A stretch of 64,000 nt of DNA from an uncultured Anaerolineales bacterium (GCA_964575455.1 CAZNRX010000001.1:112527-176526), one strand, 5' to 3'. Shown: positions 2,864 to 36,090, counted from the first letter of the stretch. Numbers and translations are program-made. Notes: generated by a model from the letters alone, not told the origin.

Positions 2864-3706
2864 TCATCCCGCCTTCCGGAAAACCATCACATACTCGTGC
2901 TTGAAGATGTAGAACCCCCCTCGCAGCGCCCGGTAGCGCCACAGGTTACTGTCCCGCCCTTTGCCCCGCTCGTTCCCCTCGATATTCTTCACGATGATGG
3001 CCTTTGTGCGGAAACCGACGCGCTGCATGCGCTCCATACAGTAGAAACCTAGGGGGATCAACTCACCCTGCGTGTACTTGTCGCCGATGACCAGCGCCGC
3101 GAAGCGCCCCGGCTCCAGCAGCGCGAAACCGTGGCGCGCGGCGACCTCGAACGTGTCCAGGAAGCTGTCCAGGTCGTCGGCGTTGGAGAGGTCGTCCGGG
3201 TGCTCCGAGAACTGGATGATGTCGTGGTAGGGCGGGTGGAGGACCAGGAGCTGGGCATGTTCGGCTGCCATGGCGTCCAGTGTCGCGCGCACGCGGTCCG
3301 CCGTCTCCTCGCTTGTTGCGTCCCCCTGCAGTACCCGGATGCGGTCGCCCAATAGCTCCGGCGAGACCTTCTCGCGCACCGCGTCCACCAGCTCCTCCTT
3401 CAGCTCCACTCCGATCAGACGCCGCCTCTGCCGCTCGGCCTCGATGGCGCTCGTCCCCGATCCCAGGAAAGGATCGAGAACCACGTCGTCCTCTTTTGTG
3501 TAGCGTAGGAACATCTGCGTGGCGATCTGCGGCACGAAGTTGCCGTGGTAATCGAGCTTGTGCCCGCCGCTGCGATCCCGGGCCTCGATCAGCCACAGGC
3601 TGTCGGTCCAGACATGCTCGTACTCCCGCCAGCGGTTGAGGTCGATGTCGGAGTAGGGGGGCGTGGTAGGGGATTCTTCTGATCGTGGTTCGTCCTTTTC
3701 GCTCAC
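2864..3706 (-). CDS. SAM-dependent DNA amino-methyltransferase (N6-adenine/N4-cytosine; PF01555-like). No endonuclease partner is apparent.
   Basis: Motif I 'VLDPFLGSGTSAIEAERQRRRLIGVEL' and motif IV 'LVLHPPYHD'. It is convergent with the MocR gene and followed by an unrelated GH57 gene. Confidence 0.8.
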   Translation of the reverse strand: MSEKDEPRSEESPTTPPYSDIDLNRWREYEHVWTDSLWLIEARDRSGGHKLDYHGNFVPQIATQMFLRYTKEDDVVLDPFLGSGTSAIEAERQRRRLIGVELKEELVDAVREKVSPELLGDRIRVLQGDATSEETADRVRATLDAMAAEHAQLLVLHPPYHDIIQFSEHPDDLSNADDLDSFLDTFEVAARHGFALLEPGRFAALVIGDKYTQGELIPLGFYCMERMQRVGFRTKAIIVKNIEGNERGKGRDSNLWRYRALRGGFYIFKHEYVMVFRKAG

Positions 3707-3946: not shown

Positions 3947-5386
3947 CTAGGGCTGGGGGCGGCCACACACGGGCGGCCCCGGTCTCGCCTCCAGCTTGGC
4001 CCGGCTGACGATCTCGTCGAAGATGTCGGCGCCCGTCAAATCCGTCTTCTCGCTCCTGGCCACGCTCAGGTTGCGCCGGAACCCGTGCGAGAGGTCCTCG
4101 CCCGTGGCGTAGCGCGTCAGGGCCAGGGCGCGCACCGCGTTGGCAATGGCATAGCGCGGCTCGTAGCGGTCCAGATCGCCGAAGAAGAATGTGCAGCTGA
4201 TGTACATCCTCTGGCGATGGAACTGAGCCTCCAACAGATGGAGCAAGCGCTGCGTCTCCTCGCTGGTCAGATGTCCCAGGCCGTTTCCGTTCAGGAAGGC
4301 ATCCTCGGATACCTTCCCCAGCACCACGTCGATGTAGCGGTCCCGCAAGGGCCAGGGCTTGAACCCCAGCTGATTCGCTTCGCGGGCGTAGATCTGGTCC
4401 AGATCGCAGGCCAGATTGTCCAGGGCCCGTCGGAGCGCGCCCTTCCACCGGCTATTGCCAGGGGTGCAGCCGCAGCCCACAACCCAGCGATCCAGCCCGT
4501 GAGCGCAGCTCCAGGCAGTGTTCTCGATCACCCTGATCTCGGCCTCCGGCGGGTGCTGATTGAGATAGAGCCCCAGCGTGGTCAGCTGGTACCCATGACG
4601 CTCTCCGGCGCCCAGGATGTGGCTTAGCACCTGCGCGCCCTGGCGGTGATGGTGGCCGAACGTCTCGCCGTCGGTGGCGACGATGTGCAGGCCATCCCTC
4701 TGGCAGCGCCACGCCACGTGCTCCTTCAGCCAATCTTCAACGTACGCCGAGTCCGGCATGCCGAAGGAGAGGTGGTTCGATAGATGACGATCGCGCACGA
4801 AGATGGCGATCTCACTGCCGTTGGGCAGCGCCACCCGGTAGGGCCCTCCGCCCGTCTCCAGACTGCCGTACACCTGCTCGTCCGAGAGGATGGTGAAGCG
4901 AATGCCCTCTGCGGTCAGCACCTCCAGCGTCTCGTGGTCCACCGCCATCTCCGGGAGCCACATGCCGTCCGGCCGGTGACCAAAGCGATGCTCGAAGCTG
5001 GCGATCCCCCAGCGCACCTGGCAGATCTTGTCGCGCCGGCGGGCCAGCGGCAGGATCGTGTGGTGGACCGATTGGGCCAGCCCGTTGCCCATACCATGGG
5101 CCCCTCGGTACGCCTGGTCGGCCCCGACGATGCGCTCGTAGGTCTGGTGAGCCTCATCGTCGAGCCAGCGGGCCAGCGTCCCTCCCAGGTTGAAGCTGAT
5201 GCGCTCGAAGTTGCCCGCCCTTGCGTTCGGCTCGTAGCACTCCGCGGTGATGCGCTCGTTCCAGTTGGCGTAGGGAGCGGCGCTGGGCTCCCTGGAGATG
5301 CGGCCGGTGAACGGATCCTCCCGCGGGGGCTGGTAGAAATGGCCGTGAATGCAGAGACGGCAGCGTGCGTTGCTTTGACTATCCAT
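3947..5386 (-). CDS. Glycoside hydrolase family 57 protein (GH57 branching-enzyme/alpha-amylase-like).
   Basis: N-terminal 'CIHGHFYQPPRE' GH57 signature. Start taken at MDSQSNARC; the ORF extends 33 codons upstream without GH57 similarity. Confidence 0.8.
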   Translation of the reverse strand: MDSQSNARCRLCIHGHFYQPPREDPFTGRISREPSAAPYANWNERITAECYEPNARAGNFERISFNLGGTLARWLDDEAHQTYERIVGADQAYRGAHGMGNGLAQSVHHTILPLARRRDKICQVRWGIASFEHRFGHRPDGMWLPEMAVDHETLEVLTAEGIRFTILSDEQVYGSLETGGGPYRVALPNGSEIAIFVRDRHLSNHLSFGMPDSAYVEDWLKEHVAWRCQRDGLHIVATDGETFGHHHRQGAQVLSHILGAGERHGYQLTTLGLYLNQHPPEAEIRVIENTAWSCAHGLDRWVVGCGCTPGNSRWKGALRRALDNLACDLDQIYAREANQLGFKPWPLRDRYIDVVLGKVSEDAFLNGNGLGHLTSEETQRLLHLLEAQFHRQRMYISCTFFFGDLDRYEPRYAIANAVRALALTRYATGEDLSHGFRRNLSVARSEKTDLTGADIFDEIVSRAKLEARPGPPVCGRPQP

Positions 5387-5560
5387 AGCGTTGTCTTTTC
5401 GTGCTCCTGGCGCGGCTTCAACCGCGATCATTGACGCTCTATTGTAACACCGCAGCTCCACAGCAGCAACGTGCCGCAGGCACAAAGGACTTTGCGGTTC
5501 TTGGCGGCCGGAGGACGGTGCGGATCCGGATGGTCCCGTCCCGTGAGGGCGACGCGCGGG

Positions 5561-6031
5561 CTACTCGATCGTCTTCAGATCATCCAGCAACCAAGATTGC
5601 GCATCTTCGTCCGGGACGGTCTCTGCTATGCGGTGGGCTTCGTCAAGGTACGAGGCCATCGTCTGGCACTCACCCGCCACGAGCTCAGCTCTGGCCAGCG
5701 CCTCGTATGCGTAGGCCAGGTAAAAGGGCGGCATGTCGTCATCTTGGCTGGCCTCCAAGCATAGGTGGGCGTATCGTCTGGCGTTCTCGGCCTGGCCGAG
5801 CACGGCATAGATCCTCGACGTTTGCCAGTATGCGGCTGAGATGTTGGCCGGCGCGCAGTCCTCGCGCTGCGTCCAATGCCAGTGCGAGGCCAGACTCAGG
5901 CGGATCATCTGCTCGTCATCTTCGGCCGTCCGGTCAGGCTTGTCCAGCAGCTCCCACGCTTCGTTGAAGCAGTGGGCGGAGAAATACCTGTGTGCAGCGT
6001 TCAGGTCGAAGGTGGGCTTTGCCATGGTCAT
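5561..6031 (-). CDS. Hypothetical protein (156 aa), acidic, no recognised domain.
   Basis: Clean ORF with protein-like composition between glucan genes; no motif recognised. Confidence 0.45.
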   Translation of the reverse strand: MTMAKPTFDLNAAHRYFSAHCFNEAWELLDKPDRTAEDDEQMIRLSLASHWHWTQREDCAPANISAAYWQTSRIYAVLGQAENARRYAHLCLEASQDDDMPPFYLAYAYEALARAELVAGECQTMASYLDEAHRIAETVPDEDAQSWLLDDLKTIE

Positions 6032-6156
6032 CTCCTTTGCTTGTGGTCCCGCGGCGGGGCGGGCAATTGCCGGTGTACTGGTCCCAGCGAACCGGGCAAC
6101 TGACGTTCCCTTTGAGGCGCGGTCTCGCTGGCGGTTACTGCCTCACGGGGGTGCGC

Positions 6157-9100
6157 TCAGGTCGCGGCAGCTTCCAGCAATCTCTCCACTCGGTACTCGG
6201 ATGCTGCCTCGGCTGCCTGTAGCGCCTCGATCACCTCGTAGCAGCTCGTGATTCTCTCGGCCGACGCCCGCTCCGGATCTGCGGCGATCGCCACCGTGGC
6301 GACCACCATCATCCACCACAGCAACTGCTCGAATGCCTCCTCATTGAACCAGAGCACGTCCTGGTACCGGTTGACCTGGAGGAAGCGCTGCACCTCGTCG
6401 TCCTCCAGCCATGAGCGAAGCACCTGGAAGGGCCGGTTCTTGGAGCCCTCACCTAGCTCGAACCAGCGCTGGTGCGTGGTCAGCACCTTGATGGTCGTCA
6501 CGGCCCACCAGGACGATCTCTCGTCGAGGCCCAGGTCCTGGATGGCGCCCGCCGTGATCTTGCCCAGGAGCCATTCGTCCTGCCAGCTGCGGCTGATCCC
6601 CGCAAAAGCCCTCGGTGACTGCGTCGCTCCCGCCTCCATCCTGCCCAGCGCGTGGCTGAAAAGCCAGCCCAGCAGCGTGGACCAGGCCCGGGGATCGTCG
6701 TCTAGGCCCACCTCCGGCACCTCCGTTGGTCCGTCCTGGATGTACTCGGCCACGTGGTCCGGCACCGACAGGCGGCTGCCTATGGTGGGCAGATCCCAAA
6801 CCACCTCCAGCTCCCGGCGTATCTGCCGGGCCAGCGACTCCTCATCGTCACCGCCGTCGGCCCGCGACTTGATCTCTTGGAGAAGCCGGAGCGTTTGTGC
6901 CTCCACCTCGTCTGCCAGCTCCTCACGTCCCTCTGCTCCTCTGCCCCTCTGCTCCCCCGCTCCTCCGCTCTCCTGCTTCCTGGCCTCCATCAGCCTCCGG
7001 AACGTCTCGGCGTTAACCAGCTCCCGAAACGGCCCATGCACCGGCTGGAGGAGCACCTCCTTGAGCGCTTCGTCGATGCTGGGGACCCCGCGTCCGTCGA
7101 GGTAGGCGGTCAGCTGGCCGTAGGGGCGCTCCACTGAGTCGCGGACCTGGCGGAAGTCGAGGAAGACGTGGTATTTGTAGGCGCTTAGCTCGGCGTACAG
7201 CCCTTTCCCGTGCAGGTCCTCGTTGCTGCGGATGTACTCAAGCCCGTTGACGTGATCCCGGAAGATGGTGTAGGTCTTAGACCCATTCTCGTCGTCGCGC
7301 AGATCCAACCCCTCGCCCAGCGATCGCTGAACCAGCTGTTTCTCGTCCTCCCCGGTCTTAGCCGCTTCGCTTCCACGGACCGCGTAGGCGACCGACGTGC
7401 GCACCCAGCCCCGCGTCTCGGCGTACCGGTTGTGGTAGAGCACCAGAGCCCGCTCGTCGCCCACGTGGTTGGAGTAGGCGAAGACGTCCTCGTTCACGTG
7501 GCCGTCGGGCGTGAAGAAGTCGTAGAGCAGAAAGTTCTCGACGTCGGCGAAGAGATACCGCTTGTGGAGCAGCGGGAAGATCTCCCGCTCGTGGCGCTCC
7601 ACCAGGTAGGTGTCCGGGGTCTCGTCCCAGTAGGCGCGGCGGTACTCCATGCCGTACTTCTCCGTGTACCCCTCAACCTGGCCATGGCCGAACATGGGCA
7701 GGCCTGGCACGGTGGCCAGCATGGTGCAGATGCCGAAGTACTTGTCGCCCTTGCCGAACTGATCCACGGCCGTGCGCTCGTCGGGGTTGTTCATGAAGTT
7801 GACGTAGCGCTTCATGATGCGCGGATCGAACGCCAGGGTGTTCTTCATCACGCTGCGGTACTTGGCGTTATCCTCGTCGCGCAGCATGTTCATGAAGGCG
7901 CTGTTATAGACGCGGTGCATGCCCAGCGTGCGCACGAAGTAGCCCTCCATCAGCCAGAACGCCTCGGCCAGCAGCAGCGTGTCCGGCACCTCCTCCGCCA
8001 CCCGGTCCACCACCTGGCGCCAGAACTCCTCCGGCATGAGCTCGTCCAGCTGCTGCCTGGTCATCCCGTGCTCCGCTCGCGAGGGGATGTCGCCGCCGGA
8101 ACCAGGCTCCGGGAACCAGAGCCTCTGGTAGTGCTTCTTCGCCAGCGTCATGGCCGCGTCGAAGCGGATGATAGGGAACTTGTGCGCCACGTGGAGGATC
8201 ATCTGAATCACGGCCTCGCGCACCTCCTCCTTCAGGAAGTTGAGCTGCGCCGTGTCGTTCCACGGCATGCTGGTGCCGTCGTTGCCGTGGTAGATGTACC
8301 GCTCGTCACCGGTCCAGTGGTCCACACGTTTGAAGACCACGGCGGCGTCGCTGCGGTCGTAGTAGCCGTCCTCCAGGTAGATCCCCACGCGATCGTCATT
8401 GCACAGATCCTCGCCGGTGAAGGAGTAGGACGGGAATGGACTGTAGTCCAGCGAGATGAAGCGCTCGGGGTGCTCGATCACCCAGCGGGAGTCGATGCCC
8501 ATGTGGTTGGGCACCATATCGCTGGCCAGCCGGATGCCCCGCCGCCAGGCGCGGTCGCGCAGGCTCTGGTACCCCTCTTCGCCGCCCAGATCGTCCGCCA
8601 CGCGGTAGTCGTCCACGGAGTAGGCGGAGGCCACCGCCTCGGGGTTGCCCATGATCTGCTTGATGCGCTGCGAGGCCGAGCTCCGCTCCCACAAGCCGAT
8701 GAGCCATAGGCTGGTGAAGCCCCGCCGGGCCAGGATGTCCAGCTCCTCGTCCGGTATGTCACCCAAACGGGTGATTGAGCGTTCATACTTCTTCGAAAGC
8801 TGATCGAGCCATACGTAGATGTTCTTGGCCAGCAGCACCACCTTCGGCATCCAGTCCTGGTCGGGGCTGAAGCGCTCATACTCTGCCTCCCTGAACTCAT
8901 AGACCCGGCTCGGACCGGGGCCGAGGAAGGTGGCCTTCTCCTCCTCGGCGATCAGGTCCAGGCTGCTGAGCAGACGATAGAGATACTTGCCCAGGAGCGA
9001 GCCCCAGCGCTCCTGCATGAACGCCAGCTGCCCCGAGAGGGAGTGGGGCGATCTGCGGGCGGGGGCGCTCAACATGTCGATCAGGTTCTCGTGGTCGGGA

Positions 9101-9738
9101 CCGAAAGGGGGCTGGGCGTCGAAGAAATCGTACAGCTCCGCCATCACCTCGCGGTAGGCCGTCTCCCTCTCCATCTCGGTGTCGTCGAACAGCTCCACGA
9201 ACGGCGAGAATCCCGGGTTCTCGTTGGCCAGCCAGAGCAGGATCAGCTCCTCAAGCACGACCTGGCGGTGGGGAACCCCGTCGGTCTCCCCCTCCAGGTA
9301 GGCCTCCGCGCTCATCCCCTGCCGGTAGACGGCCATGGGGGGAAAGCGGTTCACAAACCGTCGCAGCGTTTGGTCGAGCTCTTCCTCGCCGACGTTCTCG
9401 TCCAGCCACGCCAGCGCCTCCTCCATCACGCGGGCGTTCTTCTGCTCTCCATACACCTGGAAGATGTAATGGAGGATCTCGTCGATCAGGCCCATGGCGT
9501 TGATCTGCCCTGCCTTCATCGCCCGTTCCGGGTAGCGCACCAGGTCCTGTTTCTGATTGATGCGCTGGGTGAAGACGCGCGCGGCGTGGAAGTTGGCGAA
9601 GATCACGTTGCCGGTCAGCGTGAAGAGTGTCTCGTCGAAGTCGTAGCGCTCGCGCGCCTCGCGCGAGACGTGGAACTCCCTGGGCGCGCCCGTGACCCGG
9701 GGCGTGTCACCGCCTTTGGGTAAAGGGATGATGATCAT
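6157..9738 (-). CDS. Large (~1190 aa) alpha-amylase-family (GH13-like) protein with long N- and C-terminal extensions; specific activity unknown.
   Basis: Central region 'GFTSLWLIGLWERS...DMVPNHMGIDSRW' resembles GH13 conserved regions (DxVxNH). Start set at MIIIPLPKGG with a GGAG RBS; an alternative ATG lies at 9783 (MRITHY...), 4 nt after the upstream stop. A GA-rich low-complexity run sits at 6890-6960. Confidence 0.7.
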   Translation of the reverse strand: MIIIPLPKGGDTPRVTGAPREFHVSREARERYDFDETLFTLTGNVIFANFHAARVFTQRINQKQDLVRYPERAMKAGQINAMGLIDEILHYIFQVYGEQKNARVMEEALAWLDENVGEEELDQTLRRFVNRFPPMAVYRQGMSAEAYLEGETDGVPHRQVVLEELILLWLANENPGFSPFVELFDDTEMERETAYREVMAELYDFFDAQPPFGPDHENLIDMLSAPARRSPHSLSGQLAFMQERWGSLLGKYLYRLLSSLDLIAEEEKATFLGPGPSRVYEFREAEYERFSPDQDWMPKVVLLAKNIYVWLDQLSKKYERSITRLGDIPDEELDILARRGFTSLWLIGLWERSSASQRIKQIMGNPEAVASAYSVDDYRVADDLGGEEGYQSLRDRAWRRGIRLASDMVPNHMGIDSRWVIEHPERFISLDYSPFPSYSFTGEDLCNDDRVGIYLEDGYYDRSDAAVVFKRVDHWTGDERYIYHGNDGTSMPWNDTAQLNFLKEEVREAVIQMILHVAHKFPIIRFDAAMTLAKKHYQRLWFPEPGSGGDIPSRAEHGMTRQQLDELMPEEFWRQVVDRVAEEVPDTLLLAEAFWLMEGYFVRTLGMHRVYNSAFMNMLRDEDNAKYRSVMKNTLAFDPRIMKRYVNFMNNPDERTAVDQFGKGDKYFGICTMLATVPGLPMFGHGQVEGYTEKYGMEYRRAYWDETPDTYLVERHEREIFPLLHKRYLFADVENFLLYDFFTPDGHVNEDVFAYSNHVGDERALVLYHNRYAETRGWVRTSVAYAVRGSEAAKTGEDEKQLVQRSLGEGLDLRDDENGSKTYTIFRDHVNGLEYIRSNEDLHGKGLYAELSAYKYHVFLDFRQVRDSVERPYGQLTAYLDGRGVPSIDEALKEVLLQPVHGPFRELVNAETFRRLMEARKQESGGAGEQRGRGAEGREELADEVEAQTLRLLQEIKSRADGGDDEESLARQIRRELEVVWDLPTIGSRLSVPDHVAEYIQDGPTEVPEVGLDDDPRAWSTLLGWLFSHALGRMEAGATQSPRAFAGISRSWQDEWLLGKITAGAIQDLGLDERSSWWAVTTIKVLTTHQRWFELGEGSKNRPFQVLRSWLEDDEVQRFLQVNRYQDVLWFNEEAFEQLLWWMMVVATVAIAADPERASAERITSCYEVIEALQAAEAASEYRVERLLEAAAT

Positions 9739-9787
9739 AGATGGCTCCATGCGTGATGGTAATGCGTAATGCGTGATGCGCAATGTC

Positions 9788-11920
9788 TCAAGCGTCGAGG
9801 AGGTCGATGGTCAGCTGCACGTCCCAGGGAAGCTGGGGTTGCAGGGGCATCGCCCACCAGAGCAGGGTGCACGTGCCCTGATAGACGCGCTCGTACCCCG
9901 CTTCGGAGTTGGAGATCGCCTCCAGCGGGAAGTGCCACAAGTTTGTCGGTCGGTTGACGGCTACCTTCACCTCGCCCGCCAGGTTGGGCAGCGTGGACCC
10001 GACCCTGAAGCTCGTCATCTCGTCATACCCGGCGAAGTCGCTCAGGCTGCGGCGCTGCGAGCCCACCGTCAGGTGGCCGTAGCGGCTGTCGCCGCCCACG
10101 ATCCCCCAGTTGAACTCCACGCCAAAGCGCAGGTCGGCCGGTATCTCGTTCAGGTTGATCACGCGGTAGCCAACCGCGAGCTGTGATGACCCGGCCTGCA
10201 CCGAGATCCTTTTCTCCACCCGCACGGGGAACGGCACCTCGCCGGCCCACACGGTGCCCTCCCGCGTCAGGGTCAGCCTCGCCTCTCCGTCACATTCCCT
10301 CACCTCGGCCCGGTAGCGTTGATCGACGAAGTCGCCCTGCTCGCCGTAGTGCGCCTGGTAGAAGCTCTCCGGCGTGGTGTCATCCTGGAGGAAGTGGTCG
10401 AGGAGCGCCACCCGGCGGTGCCAGTCGTAGAAGAGGCGCGTGTGGACGTCGGGCTCCTTGACCCTTGCCCCGCGGGGGATCTCCTCCTCACCGGGCAGGA
10501 AGAGGCGGCCGTGCTCCGCCGCCCGACGCAGCGCTTCGTGGTACCCCTCGCGGTGGCGCGTCATCGTGTTGAGCAGGTTGTAGCGGCGGTCTCGCCAGTC
10601 CCACTCCACCAAGGCGCCGCCGTAGGACGGCTTGAACACCAGGACCTGTCGGTCGGTGTTGAGGATGATCTCCTCCTCGGTGTCGGCGTCCAGATCTCCC
10701 CGTTCAACCCGCACCCAGGTCTCGCTCTCGCTCCCGGCGCGATCGGCCAGCTCCTCCGCGGCGATCAGATGGGCGTAGTTCGCGACGCGGATGTGGAAGA
10801 GGTAGATGCCGCCGAACAGGCCGTGCCAGTAGCCGCAGCTGCACTGCGCGGACCAGGTGTGATCCAGCGCCTGGTCCTTCGCCGCCCCCTCCGGCATCTG
10901 GTGGACCTTGCGGCTGACCCAGAGCATCTTCTTATGCATCTGGTTGACCTCGTCGTAGCGGCCCAGGAAGGAGCGCCATACGCCACCTTTGATGAACTGG
11001 AGCACGTCCTCCCGCTCTTCGTCCTTCAGCTCGCGTCGCACCCCGCTGAGGCTGGCAAACGCGTCCGGCGGGAGGGCCCAGTGCATCATCTCCTCGTAGG
11101 ACGCGCAGGGGAGATAGATCCGACCCAGAGGCGGCAGCTTGGCCGTCAGCTCCCCCAGCGGGCGGGTCTGCAGCCAGTCGCTGTTCTCCTCCAGCGCGGT
11201 GAAGAAGCGGTCGACCCAGCCATTCTCGCCCCAGCAGTGCTCCCATGTGCTGGGCCAGAGGCCGAACTTCTCACCGTCGTCGCCGCAGACAGCGACGCCG
11301 CCGGGATGTCGCTCCGCCTGCTCCCGGAGCCAGGCGATCACAAGCCCAACCGGGCGCCATGGGATGGCGTAGCGTAGGTACATCACGTTGCCGAAGACCT
11401 TTAGCGGCAGCCCCTCTTCCTCGGTGACGTAGTAGCCGAACAGGTCATCGTCGCTCAGGCCGGCCATCTTGAAGGGGGTGTCGTCGAGCAGGGTGTACTC
11501 GACCCCGCCCTGGGCGAGCGCCTTGGGAAGGTGGGGTTCCCAGATCCGCTCGGCGATCCACGCGCCCCTCGGCACCACCCCGAAACGTTCCATCAGGTGC
11601 TGGTTCATCTTGCGGAGCTGTCCCAGCTTGTCCCGCTCCGGGATGGCGATGAATATCGGCTCGTAGTAGCCGCCGGTGAGGAGCTCCACCTGCTCCCGCG
11701 TCACTAGATCGCCCAGCCGATCCAGGTGGTCGGGTTGATTGACGTGCAGCCAATCGAGCAGGGGGCCGCTGTAGTGGAGCCCGAGGCGAATGCCCGGATG
11801 GCGCTCCAGGGTCTCCAGCATGGGATCGTAGGCCTTATGTGTGGCCTCGGCAAAGACGTGGTCGAAGTTGCCCACCGGCTGGTGGTTATGAATGACCAGG
11901 GAGAGTGTCAACTTAGACAT
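9788..11920 (-). CDS. Glycoside hydrolase family 57 protein (4-alpha-glucanotransferase/amylopullulanase-like), 711 aa.
   Basis: N-terminal 'LSLVIHNHQPVGNF' GH57 signature. Start at MSKLTL (ATG at 11920). Confidence 0.8.
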   Translation of the reverse strand: MSKLTLSLVIHNHQPVGNFDHVFAEATHKAYDPMLETLERHPGIRLGLHYSGPLLDWLHVNQPDHLDRLGDLVTREQVELLTGGYYEPIFIAIPERDKLGQLRKMNQHLMERFGVVPRGAWIAERIWEPHLPKALAQGGVEYTLLDDTPFKMAGLSDDDLFGYYVTEEEGLPLKVFGNVMYLRYAIPWRPVGLVIAWLREQAERHPGGVAVCGDDGEKFGLWPSTWEHCWGENGWVDRFFTALEENSDWLQTRPLGELTAKLPPLGRIYLPCASYEEMMHWALPPDAFASLSGVRRELKDEEREDVLQFIKGGVWRSFLGRYDEVNQMHKKMLWVSRKVHQMPEGAAKDQALDHTWSAQCSCGYWHGLFGGIYLFHIRVANYAHLIAAEELADRAGSESETWVRVERGDLDADTEEEIILNTDRQVLVFKPSYGGALVEWDWRDRRYNLLNTMTRHREGYHEALRRAAEHGRLFLPGEEEIPRGARVKEPDVHTRLFYDWHRRVALLDHFLQDDTTPESFYQAHYGEQGDFVDQRYRAEVRECDGEARLTLTREGTVWAGEVPFPVRVEKRISVQAGSSQLAVGYRVINLNEIPADLRFGVEFNWGIVGGDSRYGHLTVGSQRRSLSDFAGYDEMTSFRVGSTLPNLAGEVKVAVNRPTNLWHFPLEAISNSEAGYERVYQGTCTLLWWAMPLQPQLPWDVQLTIDLLDA

Positions 11921-12027
11921 AGCTCTGTCGCTTTCTTCTCGTCTGGGGCACCATGGAGCGGCCAGGTTTGGTGCCCTGCCAACCACCGAAGCCGCCCACG
12001 CCCCACCGTGATCCCACTAGCGGGCTG

Positions 12028-12300
12028 TTAGTTCGGGATATTGTCGTTTATTTTCGCATTTTGGTCAAGTGGCGCGCCGCCCCACTGGGCGATCTTCTCT
12101 CCCCCCAGAGCATAGATGCTGACCATGTGAGTCAGCTCACCGACGTAGACCACGTCATGGTGGGTATCGAAGCAGAGCGCGTCGGGGCGCAGCAGACCCA
12201 TCCACTCGGTCCAGAAGTGGCCGTCGAGATCGAATGCCTGGATACTGTTGTTCTCGCCACCAGCCCTCCACGACCTCGTGCCGGTGACCTCCTGCGCCAT
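12028..12300 (-). pseudogene. Possible gene remnant: a 90-aa ORF resembling a beta-propeller/NHL-type fragment, immediately downstream of xylA.
   Basis: 'HHDVVYVGELTHMVSIYALGGEKIAQWGG' looks like a propeller blade. It has no own RBS and starts 6 nt after the xylA stop. Confidence 0.3.
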
Positions 12301-12306
12301 AGACCA

Positions 12307-13476
12307 CTATCGCGCTCCGAGAAGTAGCTCAATCACCAGTTGGTCCAGCCGCTCGTAGGGCTTTCCCCGTTCGCCCATCGCCACCCGGTCAAAGGCGTGA
12401 TCCTTGAGCGCGCCGGCCTTTGCGCTGGTGTAGGGGCCGGTGTAGTGGTCCATCGCCCCATCGTCAGCCCTAATCTCGTCCAGCAGCGCCTGGATCTCGG
12501 GATCGGCGTCGAACTGCTCTGCCTTCTCCTTCAGAATGAGGTAGGTCCGCATGCAGCCCCTGGCGAAGGCCTTCACGTCCTCGGCGTCGGCCGTGCGATA
12601 GGCGTGCGCATCGAAGTGGCGCGGCCCTTCGTATCCTACGTCCTCCAGGAACTTGACCACAAAGAAGGCCTGCTTGACGTTCTGCGAACCGAAGCGCAGA
12701 TCCTGATCGTAGCGGGCGTAGTTCTGATCGTTGAGGTCGATGTGGAAGAGCTTGCCCGCGTCCCACGCCTGGGCCAGCGCGTGCGCGAAGTTGAGGCCCG
12801 CCATGTGCTCGTGGGCCACCTCCGGGTTGACCCCCACCATCTCCGGGTGGTCCAGCGTTTCGATGAAGCCGAGCATCGCCCCCGTCGTCGGCAGGTAGAG
12901 GTCGCTGCGCGGCTCGTTCGGCTTCGCCTCCAGCGCGAACTCATAGCCATAGTCCTGGTCGACGTTGTACTCACACAGGAAGTTGAGCGCTTCGCGGAAC
13001 CACTTGAGCGCCTCCGTCAGGTCCTTGGCTGCGTCGGTCTCCACCCCTTCGCGCCCACCCCAGAAGACGTAATAGTCCGCCCCAAACTCGGCGCCCAGGT
13101 CCATGGCCCGCATCGTCTTCTGCAGGGCGAAGGCGCGCACCTCGGGGTCGTTGCTGGTGAAGGCGCCATCGCGGAAGACCGGGTCGGCGAACAGGTTGGT
13201 CGTCGCCATCGGCACCACGACGCCCGTCTCGTCGAGCGCCTTCCTGAACTCGGTCACGATCCTGTCCCGCTCCGACGGCGTCGCGTCGATGGGTATCAGA
13301 TCGTTATCGTGGAAGTTCACCCCCCACGCGCCGACCTCCGCCAGCATGTGGACGATCTCCGCCGGGGACATGGCGTCGCGCACCGGCTCCCCAAAGGGAT
13401 CTCCCCCCGTATTGCCCACGGTCCACAGCCCGAAGCTGAACTTATGCTCTGGTTTCGGTTGATACAGATCAGACAT
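12307..13476 (-). CDS. xylA: Xylose isomerase, class I (short, actinobacterial/Thermus type, 389 aa).
   Basis: '[17 protein letters not shown]' and 'FHDNDL' signatures over full-length XylA. RBS GGAGGA (reverse complement of 13481-13489). Confidence 0.93.
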
Positions 13477-21611: not shown

Positions 21612-21640
21612 TAGCAAAAGCAGCCCGCATGCTGTATAAT
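21612..21640 (+). promoter_or_regulatory. Candidate sigma70-type promoter of the dcw operon (-10 TATAAT at 21635-21640, extended TG; weak -35 TAGCAA at 21612-21617).
   Basis: 'gcTGTATAAT' lies ~90 nt upstream of the mraZ start; 17-bp spacer to TAGCAA. Confidence 0.6.
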
Positions 21641-21641
21641 A

Positions 21642-21676
21642 GTGGGCGATTGTGGGGAGAAGTGGGGCATAGTGGG
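21642..21676 (+). promoter_or_regulatory. MraZ operator: four direct GTGGG repeats at exactly 10-bp spacing, immediately downstream of the -10 box.
   Basis: GTGGG at 21642, 21652, 21662 and 21672. Known MraZ operators are direct GTGGG repeats separated by 5-nt spacers overlapping the Pmra promoter. Confidence 0.8.
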
Positions 21677-21730
21677 ATATCTGCCCTTCGCTATGCTCCT
21701 CTTTTGCGCTCAGGTGGGGATTACGCCGAC

Positions 21731-22159
21731 ATGTTTCTGGGAGAGTTTGTTCACACCCTCGACAGCAAGGGGCGACTGACCGTTCCTGCCAAGTTCCGTG
21801 CGGATCTGGACACGAGCTTGGTGGTCACCCGGTGGATGGATCGCTGCCTGGCGATGTTCCCCATGGCCGAGTGGGAGCAGCTGGCCGCGCGAGTGAGTGA
21901 CCTGCCCATGACCGATCGGCGGGCACGGGCGCTCAAGCGGTTCCTTTTCTCCAGTGCTTCTCATGTCTCTCCTGACAATCAGGGACGTGTTCTCATTCCT
22001 CCCCGTCTGCGCGAATACGCTGGCCTCGACGGCGAGGTCGTCGTAGCTGGTCTCAACAACTACATAGAGATCTGGGGCACCGATGCTTGGGGGGACGAAC
22101 GGGAGCGTGTTGAAGGGGACGATGTCGAAGCTGAGGGTTGGGCGGCGTTGGGTATTTGA
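21731..22159 (+). CDS. mraZ: Transcriptional regulator MraZ.
   Basis: Duplicated 'DxxGR' modules ('[14 protein letters not shown]', '[13 protein letters not shown]'). Start at MFLGEF; the listed ORF begins 34 codons earlier, inside the operator. Confidence 0.9.
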
Positions 22160-23124
22160 TGGATGACACGCGAAGGGAGACGGCTCACATACCCGTGCTT
22201 CCTGATGAGGTCATCGATGGCCTCCAGGCGGAGCGCGGCGGGCGGTTCATCGACTGCACGGTCGGGGGAGGGGGGCACGCCGGCGCGATTCTGGAGGCCT
22301 CGGCTCCCGATGGCGTCTTGCTTGGCCTGGATCTGGATCCAGCGGCGCTGGAAATGGCCTCGGATCGCTTGGCCCGCTTTGGAGATCGGGCTCAGTTCGT
22401 CCATGCCTCTTTCGCCCGGCTGAAGGAGGTAGTGCGGGCTCACGGTTTCGCAGGGGAGCGATCGTGGGTCGATGGGATTCTGTTTGATCTAGGTCTGTCG
22501 TCGCTGCAGCTGGCGGACGCCGAACGTGGCTTCTCGTTCATGGCCGACGGGCCGCTCGACATGCGCTTTGATCCCACCTCGGGCGATCCGACGGCCGCCG
22601 ATCTGGTCAATAAGCTCTCTGAGGAAGAGCTGGCGGACATCTTCTATCACTATGGCGAGGAGAGACAGTCGCGTCGCATTGCCGGGGCCATCGTCGAAGC
22701 GAGACCGCTCCATACCACCGGCGAGCTGGCCCAGGTCGTGGAGCAGGCGGTGGGGAGGCGGCGCGGAAGGCTCCACCCGGCGACGCTCACGTTTCAGGCC
22801 CTGCGGATCGCGGTCAACGAGGAGTTGAACGCCATAAGGTCCGCTTTGCCCCAGGCCGTCGAGCTTCTGGCGCCCGGCGGTCGGTTGGCCGTGATAGCCT
22901 TCCATTCCCTGGAGGATCGCATCGTTAAGCGCTTCATGCGCCGCGAGAGCAAGGATTGCATCTGCCCGCCCGAGTTGCCAATCTGCACCTGTGATCATCA
23001 AGCGACGCTTAACGTGATCACACGAAAGCCTATCAGGCCGACCGAGGAGGAGGTGGCGGCCAACCCTCGTTCTCGTTCGGCTCGACTCCGAGTGGGGGCA
23101 CGTCGCCCAAGGCAGGGGGAGTGA
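22159..23124 (+). CDS. rsmH: 16S rRNA (cytosine1402-N4)-methyltransferase RsmH (MraW).
   Basis: 'HIPVL', '[10 protein letters not shown]' and 'DLGLSS' motifs. The ATG overlaps the mraZ stop (TGATG). Confidence 0.92.
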
Positions 23125-23127
23125 ACA

Positions 23128-23457
23128 TTGTCTGAGTTCCTGGATTGGGTCAGCCACGGCGTGAAGCGGGGACGGCTGGAGCTGGACTCGCGCCCGCTGA
23201 TGGTGCTATTCGCCATCGGCGTCGTGCTGACGCTGGTAGCGGCTCTCTACCTGGGGCTCGTCAGTCGGACCGCGGCGCAGGGGCGTCGCATCGAGCAGCT
23301 GCAGACGGACGTGTTTTGCATGCAGCGCGAGAACCAGCAGCTGGCGGTGGAGATCGCTGAGGCGAGCGCCATCCCCCAGCTCATGGAGCGGGCAAGGGCG
23401 TTGGGCTTTGTGCCTGCGGAGCGGGTGGAGTTTCTGAACGGCGGGAGTAGGGAATAG
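23128..23457 (+). CDS. ftsL: Cell division protein FtsL-like (small bitopic).
   Basis: Single TM followed by a coiled-coil region, at the conserved position between rsmH and ftsI; TTG start. Confidence 0.6.
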   Translation: MSEFLDWVSHGVKRGRLELDSRPLMVLFAIGVVLTLVAALYLGLVSRTAAQGRRIEQLQTDVFCMQRENQQLAVEIAEASAIPQLMERARALGFVPAERVEFLNGGSRE

Positions 23458-23467
23458 GGAGTGGGCC

Positions 23468-25234
23468 ATGGCTGAGGGACCGAGGCGCAGGCTTTTGCTG
23501 ATGATCGCCTTGCTAGCGCTGGCGGTGGTGATCACCGTGGTGCAGCTGGTCAAGGTTCAGATCGTCGATCATGAGTTCTACACCAACTGGGCCAAGGAGC
23601 AGCGCGTGAGGGCGGTCAAGATGGCCCAGCCTCCACGGGGCGCGATTCACGATCGGGATGGATATCTTTTGGCCGGCAACGGGGTCAGGTACGCCATCGA
23701 AGCAGCCCCGGCCTACGTGATGAAGAAGCAAGAGGCGGCGGAGGCGTTGGCGTCGGTGCTGCATATGCCGGCCTCGCATTTGGAGGCCCAGTTAAGCAAG
23801 CGCGGCGAGAACGGGCACTACAAGATGTGGGTTTCCGTGGCTGGGTCCGTCTCCCGGGAGATGGGCGAGGCGGTCACTGAGCTGGACATCGGCGGTATCA
23901 CGGTCAGACCGCTCTGGCAGCGAGTGTATCCTGAGGACTCGCTGGCGTCTCATACGCTGGGCTTTGTCAGCGTGGTGACGGGCTACTATGGCGTCGAGGG
24001 CTTCTACAACGCGATGCTCCAGCCCGAGCCGATCAGATGGGTGGGGCCGGTGGACGTCGAGAGCGTGCCCATTCCTTGGGAGCCTGTCGAGGGGGAGTTC
24101 CCTCGCCGCGGCGTGAATCTGGAGCTGACGCTGGATCGCACGGTGCAGGCGCTGGTGGAGGCCGAGCTGGCACACGCTCTGGAGACGTATCAGGCTGAGT
24201 CGGGGACGATCATCGTCATGGAGCCGGAGACGTTCGGGATTCTAGGCATGGCCAGCCTGCCCAGCTACGATCCTGAGGACTACGCTCGGTTCGCCAATCA
24301 AGAGCCCCTGTTGTTTGAGGATCCGGCGGTGAGCAGGCAGTACGAGCCCGGTTCCGTGTTCAAGATCGTGACGGTGGCGGCAGCGCTGGACAGTGGGACC
24401 GTGATGCCGGACAGCGTCTATCACGATCGGGGCTGGATCGAGGTGGGCGGGCGCGCGATCCATAACGCCTCGCGCCAGTCCTACGGGGATCAGTCGGTGA
24501 TCGACATCCTCGTCAAGTCTCTCAACGTGGGGGCCGCGTGGCTGAGCACGAAGATGGGACCAGACATCTTCTATCAATACGCGCAGGACTTTGGCTTTGG
24601 TGAGATGACTCACGTCGATCTGAACGGAGAGGTGCGAGGTCAGCTGTGGCTGCCGGAGGATGTTGAGGATTGGTCCCCCTCCCATTTGGGGACGAACGCC
24701 TTTGGGCAGGGCGTGGCGGTGACGCCGCTGCAGATGGTCACCGCGATGGCGACCGTGGCCAACGATGGAGCCCGCCTTCGGCCTCACATCGTGCATCGCC
24801 GCGTGGCCTCCGACGGGACCCCGTCGGTCTTCCATCCGGTCTTCCAGGAGCAGGTGCTGGCCCCAGAGACCGCTCGTACGCTCACGGATATGTTGGTGCA
24901 GGTGGTTGAAGAGGGAGCGACCCAGGCCAGGGTGGAGGGATACCGGGTTGCGGGCAAGACCGGCACGGCTCAGATTCCCATCCCGGGCGGCTATGACCCG
25001 GAGGGCGCCATCGCCACATTTGTGGGCTTTGGGCCTGTGCCGGATGCAGGGTCGACGGGCGATTTCGCCCAGGTACCCGAGTTGGTCGTCCTGGTGAAGC
25101 TGGATCGCCCCCAGAGCTCGCCGTGGGCGTCCCAGACGGCGGCGCCGACGTTCCAGCGGCTGACGGCACGGCTGTTCACCATGTTGGGCATCCCGCCCAG
25201 CAGCGGCGAGTTGATGGCGGAGGTGGGACCGTGA
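23468..25234 (+). CDS. ftsI: Peptidoglycan D,D-transpeptidase FtsI (class B PBP).
   Basis: N-terminal TM, dimerisation domain, and transpeptidase motifs (SxxK 'SVFK', SxN, 'KTGT'). Confidence 0.9.
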   Translation: MAEGPRRRLLLMIALLALAVVITVVQLVKVQIVDHEFYTNWAKEQRVRAVKMAQPPRGAIHDRDGYLLAGNGVRYAIEAAPAYVMKKQEAAEALASVLHMPASHLEAQLSKRGENGHYKMWVSVAGSVSREMGEAVTELDIGGITVRPLWQRVYPEDSLASHTLGFVSVVTGYYGVEGFYNAMLQPEPIRWVGPVDVESVPIPWEPVEGEFPRRGVNLELTLDRTVQALVEAELAHALETYQAESGTIIVMEPETFGILGMASLPSYDPEDYARFANQEPLLFEDPAVSRQYEPGSVFKIVTVAAALDSGTVMPDSVYHDRGWIEVGGRAIHNASRQSYGDQSVIDILVKSLNVGAAWLSTKMGPDIFYQYAQDFGFGEMTHVDLNGEVRGQLWLPEDVEDWSPSHLGTNAFGQGVAVTPLQMVTAMATVANDGARLRPHIVHRRVASDGTPSVFHPVFQEQVLAPETARTLTDMLVQVVEEGATQARVEGYRVAGKTGTAQIPIPGGYDPEGAIATFVGFGPVPDAGSTGDFAQVPELVVLVKLDRPQSSPWASQTAAPTFQRLTARLFTMLGIPPSSGELMAEVGP

Positions 25235-26727: not shown

Positions 26728-26755
26728 ACATAAGCTTCCGGGAGAGGTGTTTGAT

Positions 26756-27760: not shown

Positions 27761-27857
27761 TGTGCAAGTGGGCGAGCGCCCAAGTGCCAACCAGCGGCGC
27801 TAGGCCAGCGTCCCAACGTCTAGACGTTACAACGTTCAAACGTTCCAACGAGTTGTT

Positions 27858-31633: not shown

Positions 31634-31643
31634 GTGGTGTGAC

Positions 31644-32168
31644 ATGATGCCCTTGGACACAGCTTTGTTCACCTTCGTCTTGCTCTTCGGCCTGATGGGT
31701 GCTTTGCGAGGATGGTCAAAGGAGATGCTTGTGCTTTTCAGCGTCATCCTGGCGCTGGCCGTGCGCCTCATCTTCAGCCAGTACGTTCCCATTGCCAGGG
31801 AGTTCTTCGATCGTCCCCCGGTGGAGCAGTTCTATCTCTACTCCGGGTTGATTATCCTCATGGCCATCGCCGGCTACGCCGGCCCCGCGGTCTCGGGGCG
31901 ACTGGCCGGTGTCTCCGCGCGCGAGACGCTTCAGGACATCATGTTGGGATTCATCATCGGTGCGCTCAACGGCTTTCTGATCGTCGGCTCGATCTGGTAC
32001 TTCTTGGACGCCGCTGGCTACGGCGTCTTGGGGATCGCCGAGCCGGCACCGGGTTCACTGGCCGCGGCGATAGCCATCAAGTACCTGCCGCCTTTGTGGC
32101 TGTCCGACGCCGTCTTGTTGACCGTTTTCTCTTTCGCATCGGTCTTCGTCATCATTGTGCTCGTTTAG
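31644..32168 (+). CDS. CvpA-family (colicin V production-like) membrane protein inserted in the dcw cluster.
   Basis: 4-TM protein; 'FGLMGALRGWSKEMLVLFSV' resembles the CvpA N-terminal motif. Confidence 0.5.
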   Translation: MMPLDTALFTFVLLFGLMGALRGWSKEMLVLFSVILALAVRLIFSQYVPIAREFFDRPPVEQFYLYSGLIILMAIAGYAGPAVSGRLAGVSARETLQDIMLGFIIGALNGFLIVGSIWYFLDAAGYGVLGIAEPAPGSLAAAIAIKYLPPLWLSDAVLLTVFSFASVFVIIVLV

Positions 32169-32181
32169 CAGTGGAAGAGGC

Positions 32182-33672: not shown

Positions 33673-33888
33673 GGATCATCAGGAGGGCGGATCACTGATA
33701 GGGCGCTTGAGGGGGGTGCGCAAGCGGAAGCGGAGCCGGTCGGCGGGTGACCGTGACCCGGGTGGCGGTGTCGATCCCTATGCCTGCAGCGTGGTGGCGT
33801 CCAAGATGAAGCTGGTGAAGGCTGGGCGGAGGCGCGATGCCGGCCGGCGGCGGGATCTCCGTGGCTGACCAGCGACAGCGCCTCGGCG

Positions 33889-34854: not shown

Positions 34855-34913
34855 ACACGAAGTGTACGAAACATGACACGAAGTGCGCGAATGCGGGGAG
34901 GGAGGATCTGTTG

Positions 34914-36086: not shown

Positions 36087-36090
36087 GTCC

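Follow-up and report, generated by a model that had tools for sequence, protein, structure and literature searches.

The proteins that most resemble those described here are alpha-glucan enzymes of families GH13 and GH57. On the GH13 side are 3DHU from Lactobacillus plantarum, a structural-genomics alpha-amylase whose annotated specificity is putative, AmyB from Thermotoga neapolitana (4GKL), which is an exo-amylase, and GlgE (GH13_3), a maltosyltransferase that takes part in glycogen synthesis. The first two are about 420-450 aa long and have an A/B/C domain core; GlgE is about 660-700 aa long, with beta-rich N and S domains and RVDNPH as its CSR II motif. In actinobacterial operons, GlgE is usually accompanied by GlgB. 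A Pontibacter cluster is likewise a basis for expecting GlgB with GlgE (PMC11206854). On the GH57 side, the branching enzymes have HxHLP in CSR-1 and ELF(Y)GHW in CSR-4 (PMC11206854), and Amo45 and PoGH57 represent a "non-specified amylase" group in which the GH57 catalytic domain is followed by DUF3536, with HGHFY at CSR-1 and GET(F/Y)GHH at CSR-4 (PMC11206854). The activity of that group is poorly defined; assays have given weak amylolytic activity (CNP-G3 cleavage only) or weak 4-alpha-glucanotransferase-like activity (PMC11206854, PMC4017763). Finally, there is the three-domain 4-alpha-glucanotransferase of the hyperthermophilic archaeon Thermococcus litoralis (PDB ID: 1K1W).

The window analyzed is a 64,000-nucleotide stretch from an uncultured Anaerolineales bacterium, in which a first-pass annotation had claimed a co-oriented alpha-glucan cluster of two GH57 enzymes, a giant protein, and a 156-aa acidic protein. 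Four genes are indeed found there at 3947-11923, all on the minus strand and with Pfam domains of glucan enzymes among them, and their GC3 of 0.78-0.88 favors, by codon statistics, all four ORFs being real genes. The features are as follows.

3947..5431, minus strand: GH57 + DUF3536 protein of the "non-specified amylase" group, 479-494 aa depending on the start (PF03065, PF12055)
5561..6031, minus strand: 156-aa acidic TPR-like protein, probable passenger
6157..9738, minus strand: giant GH13-family protein, 1193 aa, P0001 (PF00128; 100% database match; AlphaFold2 model)
8839..9681, minus strand: N-terminal all-alpha domain of the giant, residues about 20-300, helical in the model and family-specific
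7534..8838, minus strand: GH13 (beta/alpha)8 barrel with domain B, residues about 301-735
7129..7533, minus strand: domain C beta-sandwich, residues about 736-870 (strands 737-866 in the model)
6157..7128, minus strand: C-terminal all-alpha region, residues about 871-1193 plus the stop codon (helices in the model)
8158-8160, 7963-7965, and 7780-7782, minus strand: codons of catalytic residues D527, E592, and D653, respectively
9788..11923, minus strand: GH57 4-alpha-glucanotransferase of T. litoralis type, 711 aa (Pfam, PDB ID: 1K1W)

The giant lies in an ORF spanning 6157-9783, and its true start is the ATG at 9738, which has a Shine-Dalgarno GGAG 7 nt upstream; the 1193-aa product is identical (100%) to database protein P0001 and has no signal peptide. 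PF00128 (Alpha-amylase), found at residues 346-709 with 44.5 bits (cut-off 22), is the sole Pfam match along the whole length, with no CBM, second catalytic, or SLH domain. The AlphaFold2 model (pLDDT 87, pTM 0.80) has a barrel of canonical topology with domain B after beta3, followed by a beta-sandwich domain C that falls within the ~400-residue GH13 match. The CSRs are on beta3, beta4, beta5, and beta7, and R525, D527, E592, D653, and H412 sit where these strands end on the C-terminal side; none of the five residues varies among 125 diverse members. The first-pass annotation had seen GH13 regions I/II in a ~120-aa stretch; the kinship stands, and the extent has to be enlarged to a whole GH13 fold over residues ~300-866.

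In CSR IV, the second His of FxxNHD is absent, and an invariant Pro (N651-P652-D653) is found there as in GlgE; in alignments, D653 pairs with the Asp of NHD in 4AEF and with that of TPD in GlgE. Replacement of this His by Pro is a known tolerated deviation in GH13 and does not disqualify a protein from membership. The fold, the catalytic triad, the CSR II Arg (in the motif RFDAA), and the CSR I His place the giant in GH13, clan GH-H. Judged by these residues, it is clearly predicted to be a retaining enzyme with nucleophile (D527), acid/base (E592), and transition-state Asp (D653) intact; although it has diverged very far from other GH13 members, its catalytic machinery is intact.

The flanks are what set the giant apart. 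Submitted separately (residues 1-340, and two pieces covering ~711-1193), they have zero Pfam matches at E ≤ 10. Sequence and fold searches of the PDB find nothing covering the ~280-aa N-terminal domain and nothing significant for the ~320-aa C-terminal region, inside which there is a variable linker at ~915-1010. When ORFs from the first 80 loci are searched with an HMM of the N-terminal domain, only members of the giant's own family match. Thus the first-pass ends of ~330 and ~500 aa do match nothing, and only their sizes need correction. A well-characterised fusion, such as an amylopullulanase, would have undone the view of the giant as the uncharacterised component; the domain search finds no recognizable extra domains, all NCBIfam equivalogs stay far below their cut-offs, and the PDB yields no structure with this architecture, so that neither an amylopullulanase nor a known multidomain GH13 fusion is indicated.

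The best profile-to-PDB matches of the giant are 3DHU (E = 2 × 10−9) and 4GKL (E = 1 × 10−8). They have the same A/B/C core and, after beta3, the same NHxxxDSxWVxEHP(D/E)WF motif, but the alignment spans only ~400 residues (16% identity), the N-terminal domain and helical C-terminal region belong to the giant alone, and CSR IV reads NNPD in the giant against NHD.

Upstream of the giant, the second GH57 gene has an ORF at 9788-11986 and a probable ATG at 11923, giving the 711 aa that had been noted for a glucanotransferase-like protein. Pfam finds Glyco_hydro_57 (PF03065), AmyA-A_glucT_m (PF09094), and AmyA-gluTrfs_C (PF09095), the same three-domain architecture as 1K1W, which it matches over the full length (E = 6 × 10−127, residues 25-723 against 3-654). 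By domains and full-length similarity, it belongs among the GH57 4-alpha-glucanotransferases and is a predicted functional analogue of MalQ; it is bacterial (Chloroflexota) and 1K1W archaeal. The same gene is upstream of the giant in close relatives L081 and L082, and GH77 MalQ takes its place in other lineages.

The first GH57 gene has an ORF at 3947-5485 and probably starts at 5431 or 5386. Its product matches PF03065 (E = 1.5 × 10−21) and then PF12055 (DUF3536; E = 6.4 × 10−30, positions 3-159 of the 284-position model), a domain order that puts it in the "non-specified amylase" group. It has HGHFY at CSR-1 and GETFGHH at CSR-4, the same as PoGH57 (PMC11206854), and CTFFFGD, in agreement with the description of CSR-5 as ending in two Phe (PMC6037648). 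It is short, about 480-495 aa against 673 aa for Amo45 (PMC4017763). It had been called branching-enzyme-like, a label that does not survive: HGHFY and GETFGHH stand where a GH57 glycogen branching enzyme has HxHLP and ELF(Y)GHW, and the GBE equivalog NF041133, whose cut-off is 1000 bits, gives only 34.

The 156-aa protein has a net charge of about -15, counted from its sequence, no match in a Pfam search, and a family of ~1300 clusters, some labelled TPR repeat protein. Its homologue is found beside the giant in 1 of 162 related loci (L081, same position), and outside giant loci the homologues occur in unrelated gene contexts. It is probably a lineage-specific passenger with no functional part in the system, and we drop it from the cluster.

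To see which neighbors are kept, we counted them in the ±10 kb flanks of those 162 loci. GH57-DUF3536 is the most conserved neighbor, present anywhere in 36 and immediately downstream in 31 of the 118 with enough flank, followed by GlgC (21), GlgA (19), MalQ (17), GlgE and TreS-Mak (3 each), and GlgX and GlgP (1 each). The order GlgA>GlgC>giant>GH57-DUF3536 on the same strand is found in L085, L086, and L089, and giant>GlgE>TreS-Mak in L026 and L062. The GlgE next to the giant is bona fide in L026, L062, and L015 (E = 10−172 for L026 against Streptomyces coelicolor GlgEI), and the usually accompanying GlgB is missing from these operons. Fusion proteins join GlgC to the giant (P0035), MalQ to the giant (P0136), and the giant to GlgA (P0206). 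By its gene neighborhoods, the family is thus linked to both routes by which alpha-1,4-glucan is made, GlgC/GlgA and TreS-Mak/GlgE, and with GlgA/GlgC or GlgE/TreS-Mak as the kept partners, the earlier phrase "maltodextrin remodelling" is too narrow. The locus is best explained as one lineage's version of a conserved module that handles alpha-glucan (glycogen) inside the cell, with the giant and GH57-DUF3536 as its core and, here, the GH57 4-alpha-glucanotransferase replacing MalQ.

As for what the giant does, we tentatively propose, more in doubt than in confidence, that it transfers alpha-glucan chains in glycogen metabolism and possibly stands in for GlgB. It would act on growing or stored alpha-1,4-glucan, and the likeliest single reaction would be branching, in which an alpha-1,4 bond is cut and the chain is joined elsewhere; this step would be common to both synthesis routes. 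The trimming or disproportionation of chains would then fall to GH57-DUF3536 and the 4-alpha-glucanotransferase. That the two helical end domains might shape an acceptor site or assemble partners is pure conjecture. Branching is proposed because it is the only classical glycogen function never seen beside the giant, while GlgX, GlgP, GlgE, MalQ, and GlgA co-occur with it (with E. coli GlgB as query, an orthologue is in 0 of 162 neighborhoods, which is weak evidence since it concerns ±10 kb only), and because the GH57-DUF3536 neighbor does not have branching-enzyme fingerprints. Retaining GH13 chemistry would permit chain transfer, and the giant holds the usual position of the branching enzyme in glgA/glgC and glgE clusters.

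Several points count against it. A Pfam search finds no CBM48 in the giant, no GlgB NCBIfam model matches it, and phmmer with E. coli GlgB has no match to the family, so that it is not a GH13_8/9 GlgB; with its different architecture and lack of sequence affinity, branching activity is hypothetical. Strong conservation of the active site is more usual with small defined substrates than with polymer clefts, the nearest structural relatives (3DHU, 4GKL, GlgE) include no branching enzyme, and of the loci flanked by 8 kb or more, ~60% have no alpha-glucan neighbor.

It is unlikely, though worth serious consideration, that the giant instead works in the cytoplasm as an alpha-amylase or a maltodextrin hydrolase, perhaps an exo-acting or maltose-forming one, and degrades glycogen or maltodextrin with GH57-DUF3536 and the 4-alpha-glucanotransferase as partners, comparable to the "amy" genes that certain glg operons include (PMC4282360). 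Alpha-amylases are its best sequence and fold relatives, RFDAA in CSR II is amylase-like, and MalQ or the GH57 4-alpha-glucanotransferase often adjoins it. However, a simple amylase would not usually be 1193 aa long, with ~600 extra residues, and keep 67% identity in its catalytic domain from phylum to phylum, the amylase-typical CSR IV His is replaced by the invariant Pro, and the fusions and operons are with the synthesis genes GlgC and GlgA.

The giant could also be GlgE-like, using or making an alpha-glycosyl phosphate (maltose-1-phosphate, glucose-1-phosphate) as a GH13 glucan phosphorylase or transferase, which we regard as distinctly unlikely. CSR III and IV align with Mycobacterium tuberculosis GlgE (LLAEAFW/FLSEAFT, FMNNPDE/FVNTPDI), giving common LAEAF and N-x-P-D motifs with the unusual Pro; 3DHU and 4GKL are the next-best PDB relatives of GlgE itself; GlgP almost never adjoins the giant; and a highly conserved active site would suit a small defined donor. 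Yet the GlgE alignment alone is not significant (E = 0.73), the similarity is local to motifs (E = 0.04-0.7) rather than full-length with N and S domains, and CSR II is RFDAA against RVDNPH. Where a true GlgE is a separate adjoining gene, as in L026, L062, and L015, the giant is no substitute for it, and in most giant loci maltokinase or TreS is absent nearby.

We give a still smaller chance to adjacency being phylogenetic inertia, with the giant acting on some other alpha-glucoside, for example a compatible solute or cell-envelope glucan. The ~60% of well-flanked loci cited above are in line with this, as is the conserved synteny in Anaerolineaceae with unrelated thiolase, cyclase, epimerase, and FtsZ genes, but the glucan-gene association recurs across gene orders, orientations, and phyla (KSB1, Spirochaetales, several Chloroflexota clades), and there are three independent kinds of fusion. 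Least probable of all is a TreY-like role, in which glucan reducing ends become trehalosyl for release by GH57-DUF3536 or TreZ: several TreY are among the sole NCBIfam/PDB sequence matches near CSR I (DMVPNHM vs DIVPNHM), tight pairing with a second hydrolase recalls TreY/TreZ, and L026 has TreZ (729 bits, cut-off 539) and no canonical TreY beside the giant, but the TreY equivalog gives 27 bits against a cut-off of 499, TreZ is in only 1 of 162 loci, and neither equivalog nor fold places the giant in TreY (GH13_26).

Whichever reaction it catalyzes, chain transfer being our proposal, the giant belongs to a family of more than 8000 clusters at 90% identity, or 1515 at 50% identity (E ≤ 10−30), found in at least 10 phyla with 51-72% full-length identity. 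The records are MAGs and metagenome contigs, with sediment among the sources that their titles name, and the family is plentiful in Anaerolineae and at least 9 further phyla, so the cluster cannot be called typical of thermophilic lineages. Between the most diverse members, the catalytic domain is 67% identical, the N-terminal domain averages 32%, and the C-terminal region is least conserved at ~20%. We found no characterised member, the annotation being only "alpha-amylase family glycosyl hydrolase". This conservation and spread resemble those of core metabolism. The giant represents a large, widespread, unstudied GH13 family located beside glycogen-synthesis genes in many phyla, and may itself be a core enzyme, so far unrecognised, of glycogen metabolism in bacteria.

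On the minus strand of the window, four co-oriented genes with strong coding statistics occupy 3947-11986. The first-pass annotation had their coordinates and sizes right, and the observation is confirmed as follows.

9788-11923, minus strand: GH57 #2, 711 aa from the likely ATG, with three Pfam domains of the archaeal alpha-amylase/4-alpha-glucanotransferase type
6157-9738, minus strand: the giant GH13-like protein, 1193 aa, with GGAG 7 nt before the ATG at 9738 and a translation identical to database protein P0001
5561-6031, minus strand: an acidic 156-aa protein with no Pfam match
3947-5431 or 3947-5386, minus strand: GH57 #1, a GH57 catalytic domain followed by the first half of DUF3536

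The G+C content of the window is 64%, and chromosomal housekeeping genes are present. The flanks of the cluster are not related to alpha-glucans, encoding an EamA transporter, a GntR-aminotransferase regulator, a DNA methylase, a sugar-isomerase-like TIM barrel, Pth and Mfd. A search of the whole window found no GlgA, GlgC, GlgB, GlgP, GlgX or MalQ, and the only other sugar-phosphate enzyme seen there is a 472-aa protein of the phosphoglucomutase/phosphomannomutase family (58158-59576, minus strand), about 46 kb from the cluster. Scanning for promoters and terminators yielded no signal above chance. Directly upstream on the same strand are a 90-aa ORF and the gene of a 389-aa xylose-isomerase-like TIM-barrel protein (12028-13476), which we rejected as cluster members; neither is at this position in L081 and L082, the window's closest relatives, in which the cluster adjoins a 198/249-aa ORF, Pth and Mfd. 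The 156-aa protein was likewise rejected as a pathway component, being present in 1 of 162 related loci (L081) and in unrelated contexts elsewhere. Its family is small and TPR-like, with ~1300 clusters, and we treat it as a passenger. Immediately downstream of the GH57-DUF3536 gene is an N6/N4 DNA methylase (2864-3706, minus strand) with no restriction partner visible, in a position kept in L081 and two other related loci, L006 and L086.

GH57 #2 aligns end to end with the structure of the Thermococcus litoralis 4-alpha-glucanotransferase, 1K1W (E = 6e-127), and by its architecture and full-length similarity can be filed as a predicted GH57 4-alpha-glucanotransferase homologue. GH57 #1 is a member of the DUF3536 group, listed in Janecek's analyses as 'non-specified amylases' with a CSR-5 (conserved sequence region 5) ending in FF (PMC6037648), as it does in GH57 #1. 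The motifs of GH57 #1 are HGHFY and GETFGHH; at exactly those positions, the Pontibacter DUF3536 enzyme PoGH57 has HGHFY and ETYGHH, and branching enzymes carry HxHLP and ELF(Y)GHW, a difference used by the PoGH57 authors to exclude a branching-enzyme identity (PMC11206854). The branching-enzyme (GBE) equivalog models score GH57 #1 at 34 and 17 bits against cut-offs of 1000 and 920. Because both the motifs and these scores exclude it, the earlier label 'branching-enzyme-like' is wrong. As to what such proteins do, PoGH57 has a low activity suggestive of a 4-alpha-glucanotransferase (PMC11206854), and for the metagenomic Amo45, CNP-maltotrioside was the only substrate cleaved, with no polymer attacked (PMC4017763).

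The structure of the giant protein was predicted with AlphaFold2 from 64 diverse family members, giving a confident model (pLDDT 87, pTM 0.80). The model has an all-alpha N-terminal domain at residues about 20-300, a canonical GH13 (beta/alpha)8 barrel at about 300-735 with a large domain B at 412-500, a beta-sandwich domain C at 737-866, and an all-alpha C-terminal region with a variable linker at 872-1192. Neither Pfam at E ≤ 10 nor a PDB sequence search matched the isolated N-domain, domain C or C-terminal region, and HMMs of these three parts had no non-family match among 972 ORFs of the first 80 related loci. Foldseek against the PDB returned a flat list of GH13 structures for the model with no subfamily signal, leaving the N- and C-terminal regions unmatched, and a fold search with a model in which the C-terminal helices alone were well folded gave nothing significant (best E ≥ 0.06). 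An hhalign comparison with a small GH13 neighbor was confined to the beta2-beta3 region. At the end of the N-domain, D293, W296 and M297 are invariant; since they just precede beta1 (model residues 302-306), the N-domain may contribute to the active site. Near the C-terminus, residues about 1134-1154 (6277-6339) form a very hydrophobic, Trp-rich helix, EQLLWWMMVVATVAIAA, which is kept in close homologues and is buried in the model at high confidence.

Fold and catalytic machinery alike make the giant protein a GH13 member. The conserved sequence regions are in their expected places: DMVPNH at beta3, IIRFDAA at beta4, LLLAEAF at beta5 and FMNNPDE after beta7. D407, N411, H412, R525, D527, E592, P652 and D653 show no variation across 125 representatives with 42-58% identity to the query, and N651 is at least 90% conserved among these and invariant in the 64-sequence subset. 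The sole deviation in the catalytic motifs is an invariant Pro in place of the CSR IV His. This is an intact retaining GH13 enzyme and, because the catalytic residues are invariant among divergent members, almost certainly a catalytically competent one. As it has no signal sequence, it is cytoplasmic. The residue 500-735 profile aligns weakly with Mycobacterium tuberculosis GlgE (E = 0.73), and the pairs of motifs are striking: LLAEAFW/FLSEAFT, LGMHRVYNSAF/LGFTQSYSYF and FMNNPDE/FVNTPDI for the giant protein and GlgE, respectively. The next-best PDB relatives of GlgE itself are also the amylase structures 3DHU and 4GKL (AmyB). On these motif matches and this shared kinship, the catalytic domain is placed near GlgE and the 3DHU/AmyB amylases within GH13, in a lineage of its own that is very divergent. 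A eukaryotic-type debranching enzyme was rejected, its sole support being a sub-threshold hDGE_amylase match in one fusion protein, with GDE_C absent. The suspicion that the giant protein is not a known fusion held up, as none of the characterised GH13 subfamilies or known fusion architectures tested fits.

The family is large. A word-indexed protein search gave at least 8000 matches, of which the best 120 are all full length and 65-83% identical, mostly from Chloroflexota/Anaerolineae. An exhaustive HMMER search over 1.84 billion 50%-identity representatives gave 1515 matches at E ≤ 1e-30; identity is 44% or more throughout the top 150, most of them between 1100 and 1260 aa long. Scanning one genome per species found more than 590 loci, the best 80 of which come from Chloroflexota, Calditrichota, KSB1, Armatimonadota, Syntrophorhabdaceae and other 'Deltaproteobacteria', Spirochaetes, Nitrospira, Acidobacteria, Chlamydiota and Planctomycetes. 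Compared with the window protein, the 64 most diverse representatives average 67% identity over catalytic domains A+B, where 100 columns are invariant, and 32%, 39% and about 20% over the N-domain, domain C and C-terminal region, respectively. The giant GH13 is under strong purifying selection. The only names given by any source are 'glycosidase' and 'alpha-amylase family glycosyl hydrolase', including for the protein from the cultured Longilinea arvoryzae KOME-1 (WP_075073714.1/A0A0S7BJ15), and literature searches (GH13/GH57/GH77 in Chloroflexi, GlgE-like, Anaerolineae glgB, novel branching enzyme) found no study of the family.

Neighbors were classified by reference sequences, including E. 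coli GlgB, GlgP, GlgA, GlgC and GlgX, in 162 loci with ORF calls (80 genome-derived, 80 metagenome-derived and the 2 close relatives). The most frequent neighbor is GH57-DUF3536, in 36 of the 162, followed by GlgC (21), GlgA of family GT5 (19), MalQ of family GH77 (17), a cyclomaltodextrinase-like GH13 (7), GH57 4-alpha-glucanotransferase (5), GlgE (3) and TreS-maltokinase (3), with GlgX, TreZ and alpha-glucan phosphorylase in 1 each. GlgB, by the E. coli reference, is in none of these local neighborhoods. Of 118 loci with enough flank, 31 have GH57-DUF3536 directly downstream of the giant GH13, and at least one alpha-glucan gene is nearby in 44 of 110 with at least 8 kb of flank. The recurring gene orders are listed next.

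Gene orders around the giant GH13 (GH57D, GH57-DUF3536; GH57-4aGT, GH57 4-alpha-glucanotransferase)
GlgA > GlgC > giant > GH57D: L085, L086 and L089, on one strand
giant > GH57D < GlgA > GlgC > MalQ >: nine loci in full, and several more without GlgA or ended by the contig edge
MalQ > giant: L002 and L038
giant > GlgE > TreS-Mak > TreZ > GH57D: L026 and L062, from KSB1
giant > GlgX > x > GlgE > TreS-Mak: L015, gene identities confirmed
GH57-4aGT > giant > 155-aa > GH57D: the order in the window, kept in its closest relatives at 80% and 76% identity

In the window, then, the GH57 4-alpha-glucanotransferase takes the place held elsewhere by MalQ. The GlgE-pathway operons (L026 3453-16497, L062 10001-17110, L015 10001-21949) encode on one strand the giant GH13, GlgE and a TreS-maltokinase fusion, in some followed by TreZ and GH57-DUF3536; their carriers are KSB1 and one unclassified MAG, and L015 also has GlgX. 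GlgB and TreY are absent from all three. L121 (7281-13450) alone encodes an alpha-glucan phosphorylase (739 aa; DUF3417 + Phosphorylase), two genes upstream of the giant GH13 and on its strand. Some long database members carry partners within the same polypeptide: GlgC-giant (P0035, 1571 aa), MalQ (GH77)-giant (P0136, 1680 aa) and giant-GlgA (GT5 glycogen synthase; P0206, 1637 aa), which are either natural fusions or merged gene calls. Two others, P0157 (1769 aa) and P0133 (1308 aa, with a C-terminal HHH_5), have extra C-terminal sequence. The giant GH13 is genomically coupled to both routes of alpha-1,4-glucan synthesis, to 4-alpha-glucanotransferases and above all to GH57-DUF3536.

Elsewhere in the window is a division/cell-wall (dcw) cluster (21629-39585, plus strand) with MraZ, MraW, an FtsI-like PBP, MraY, MurD, MurC, Ddl, FtsQ, FtsA and FtsZ. 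Because 8 other loci, mostly from Anaerolineae, also have FtsZ no more than 10 kb from the giant GH13, the two regions are loosely syntenic. At 25235-26746 and 29310-32154, where murE/murF and ftsW/murG are expected, crude gene calling yields just ORFs that are short or on the minus strand and have poor codon statistics, among them a 462-aa minus-strand ORF with no Pfam match; these gaps may reflect the difficulty of calling genes at high GC. At 44222-47023 (plus strand) is a large chain of ribonucleotide reductase (933 aa) with a C-terminal TSCPD domain; Rfam found neither a cobalamin riboswitch nor any other RNA family in the whole window, and there are no tRNAs in the 64 kb. The product of 50267-51529 (minus strand, 420 aa) has tRNA_SAD and DHHA1 domains and just the tail of an alanyl-tRNA synthetase core, which suggests either a stand-alone editing protein of the AlaX type or a truncated AlaRS. 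Two large sensor histidine kinases, side by side at 51526-57145 (minus strand), have GAF+PAS (567 aa) and four GAF domains (1093 aa), with no response regulator noted beside them.

What the giant GH13 does would be the processing of a glycogen or maltodextrin chain. Elongation (GlgA, GlgE), activation (GlgC, TreS-Mak), disproportionation (MalQ, GH57 4-alpha-glucanotransferase), debranching (GlgX) and phosphorolysis (GlgP) each occur beside it at least once, and branching is the only classical glycogen function that never does in the 162 loci. Branching is also the one step common to the GlgC/GlgA and GlgE routes (PMC11206854, PMC12525153). For these two reasons, a chain-transfer or branching role is the best single guess, and a tentative one. 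It is similarly possible, at that same low level of confidence, that the family is an unrecognised core glycogen enzyme, either a branching enzyme of a third, non-homologous architecture, which would replace GlgB in Anaerolineae, KSB1, Calditrichota and others, or the catalyst of a new glucan reaction, whose step would be common to both routes. In either case, its working partner might be the GH57-DUF3536 proteins, which are just as unexplained. A serious caveat against branching is that the apparent closest relatives include an amylase and a maltosyltransferase; also, an active site so conserved may indicate a small, specific substrate. Furthermore, whereas GlgB has a CBM48, the giant protein has none, and has no affinity to known branching enzymes.

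A catabolic amylase is a rather doubtful reading, favored by the kinship with 3DHU and AmyB and disfavored by the operons and fusions with GlgC and GlgA. A GlgE-like sugar-phosphate-dependent transferase or phosphorylase is unlikely; the motif pairs speak for it, and the genuine GlgE encoded beside the giant GH13 in L026, L062 and L015 speaks against it. That the glycogen-gene context is not meaningful is improbable given the repeated gene orders, set against the loci with no alpha-glucan gene nearby. A TreY-like isomerase, with TreZ beside the giant GH13 in one locus, is most improbable, and an identity as TreY itself was rejected, there being neither an equivalog nor a fold match. The proposal of a non-classical glycogen or maltodextrin remodelling pathway is supported in part only: the giant protein stands as its uncharacterised component, and the branching label of GH57 #1 falls away.

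Accounts of glycogen metabolism in bacteria usually count five or six enzymes. The giant GH13 family equals these in conservation, with 67% catalytic-domain identity across phyla, is very abundant in environmental genomes (thousands of clusters), and is physically linked or fused to GlgA, GlgC, MalQ and GlgE, yet is only generically named. Defining its reaction could give a new glucan-modifying enzyme for starch technology and could explain the function of the GH57-DUF3536 group, so far resistant to characterisation; it would also fill a gap in the carbon-storage model for Chloroflexota and other dominant bacteria of sediment, soil and wastewater.
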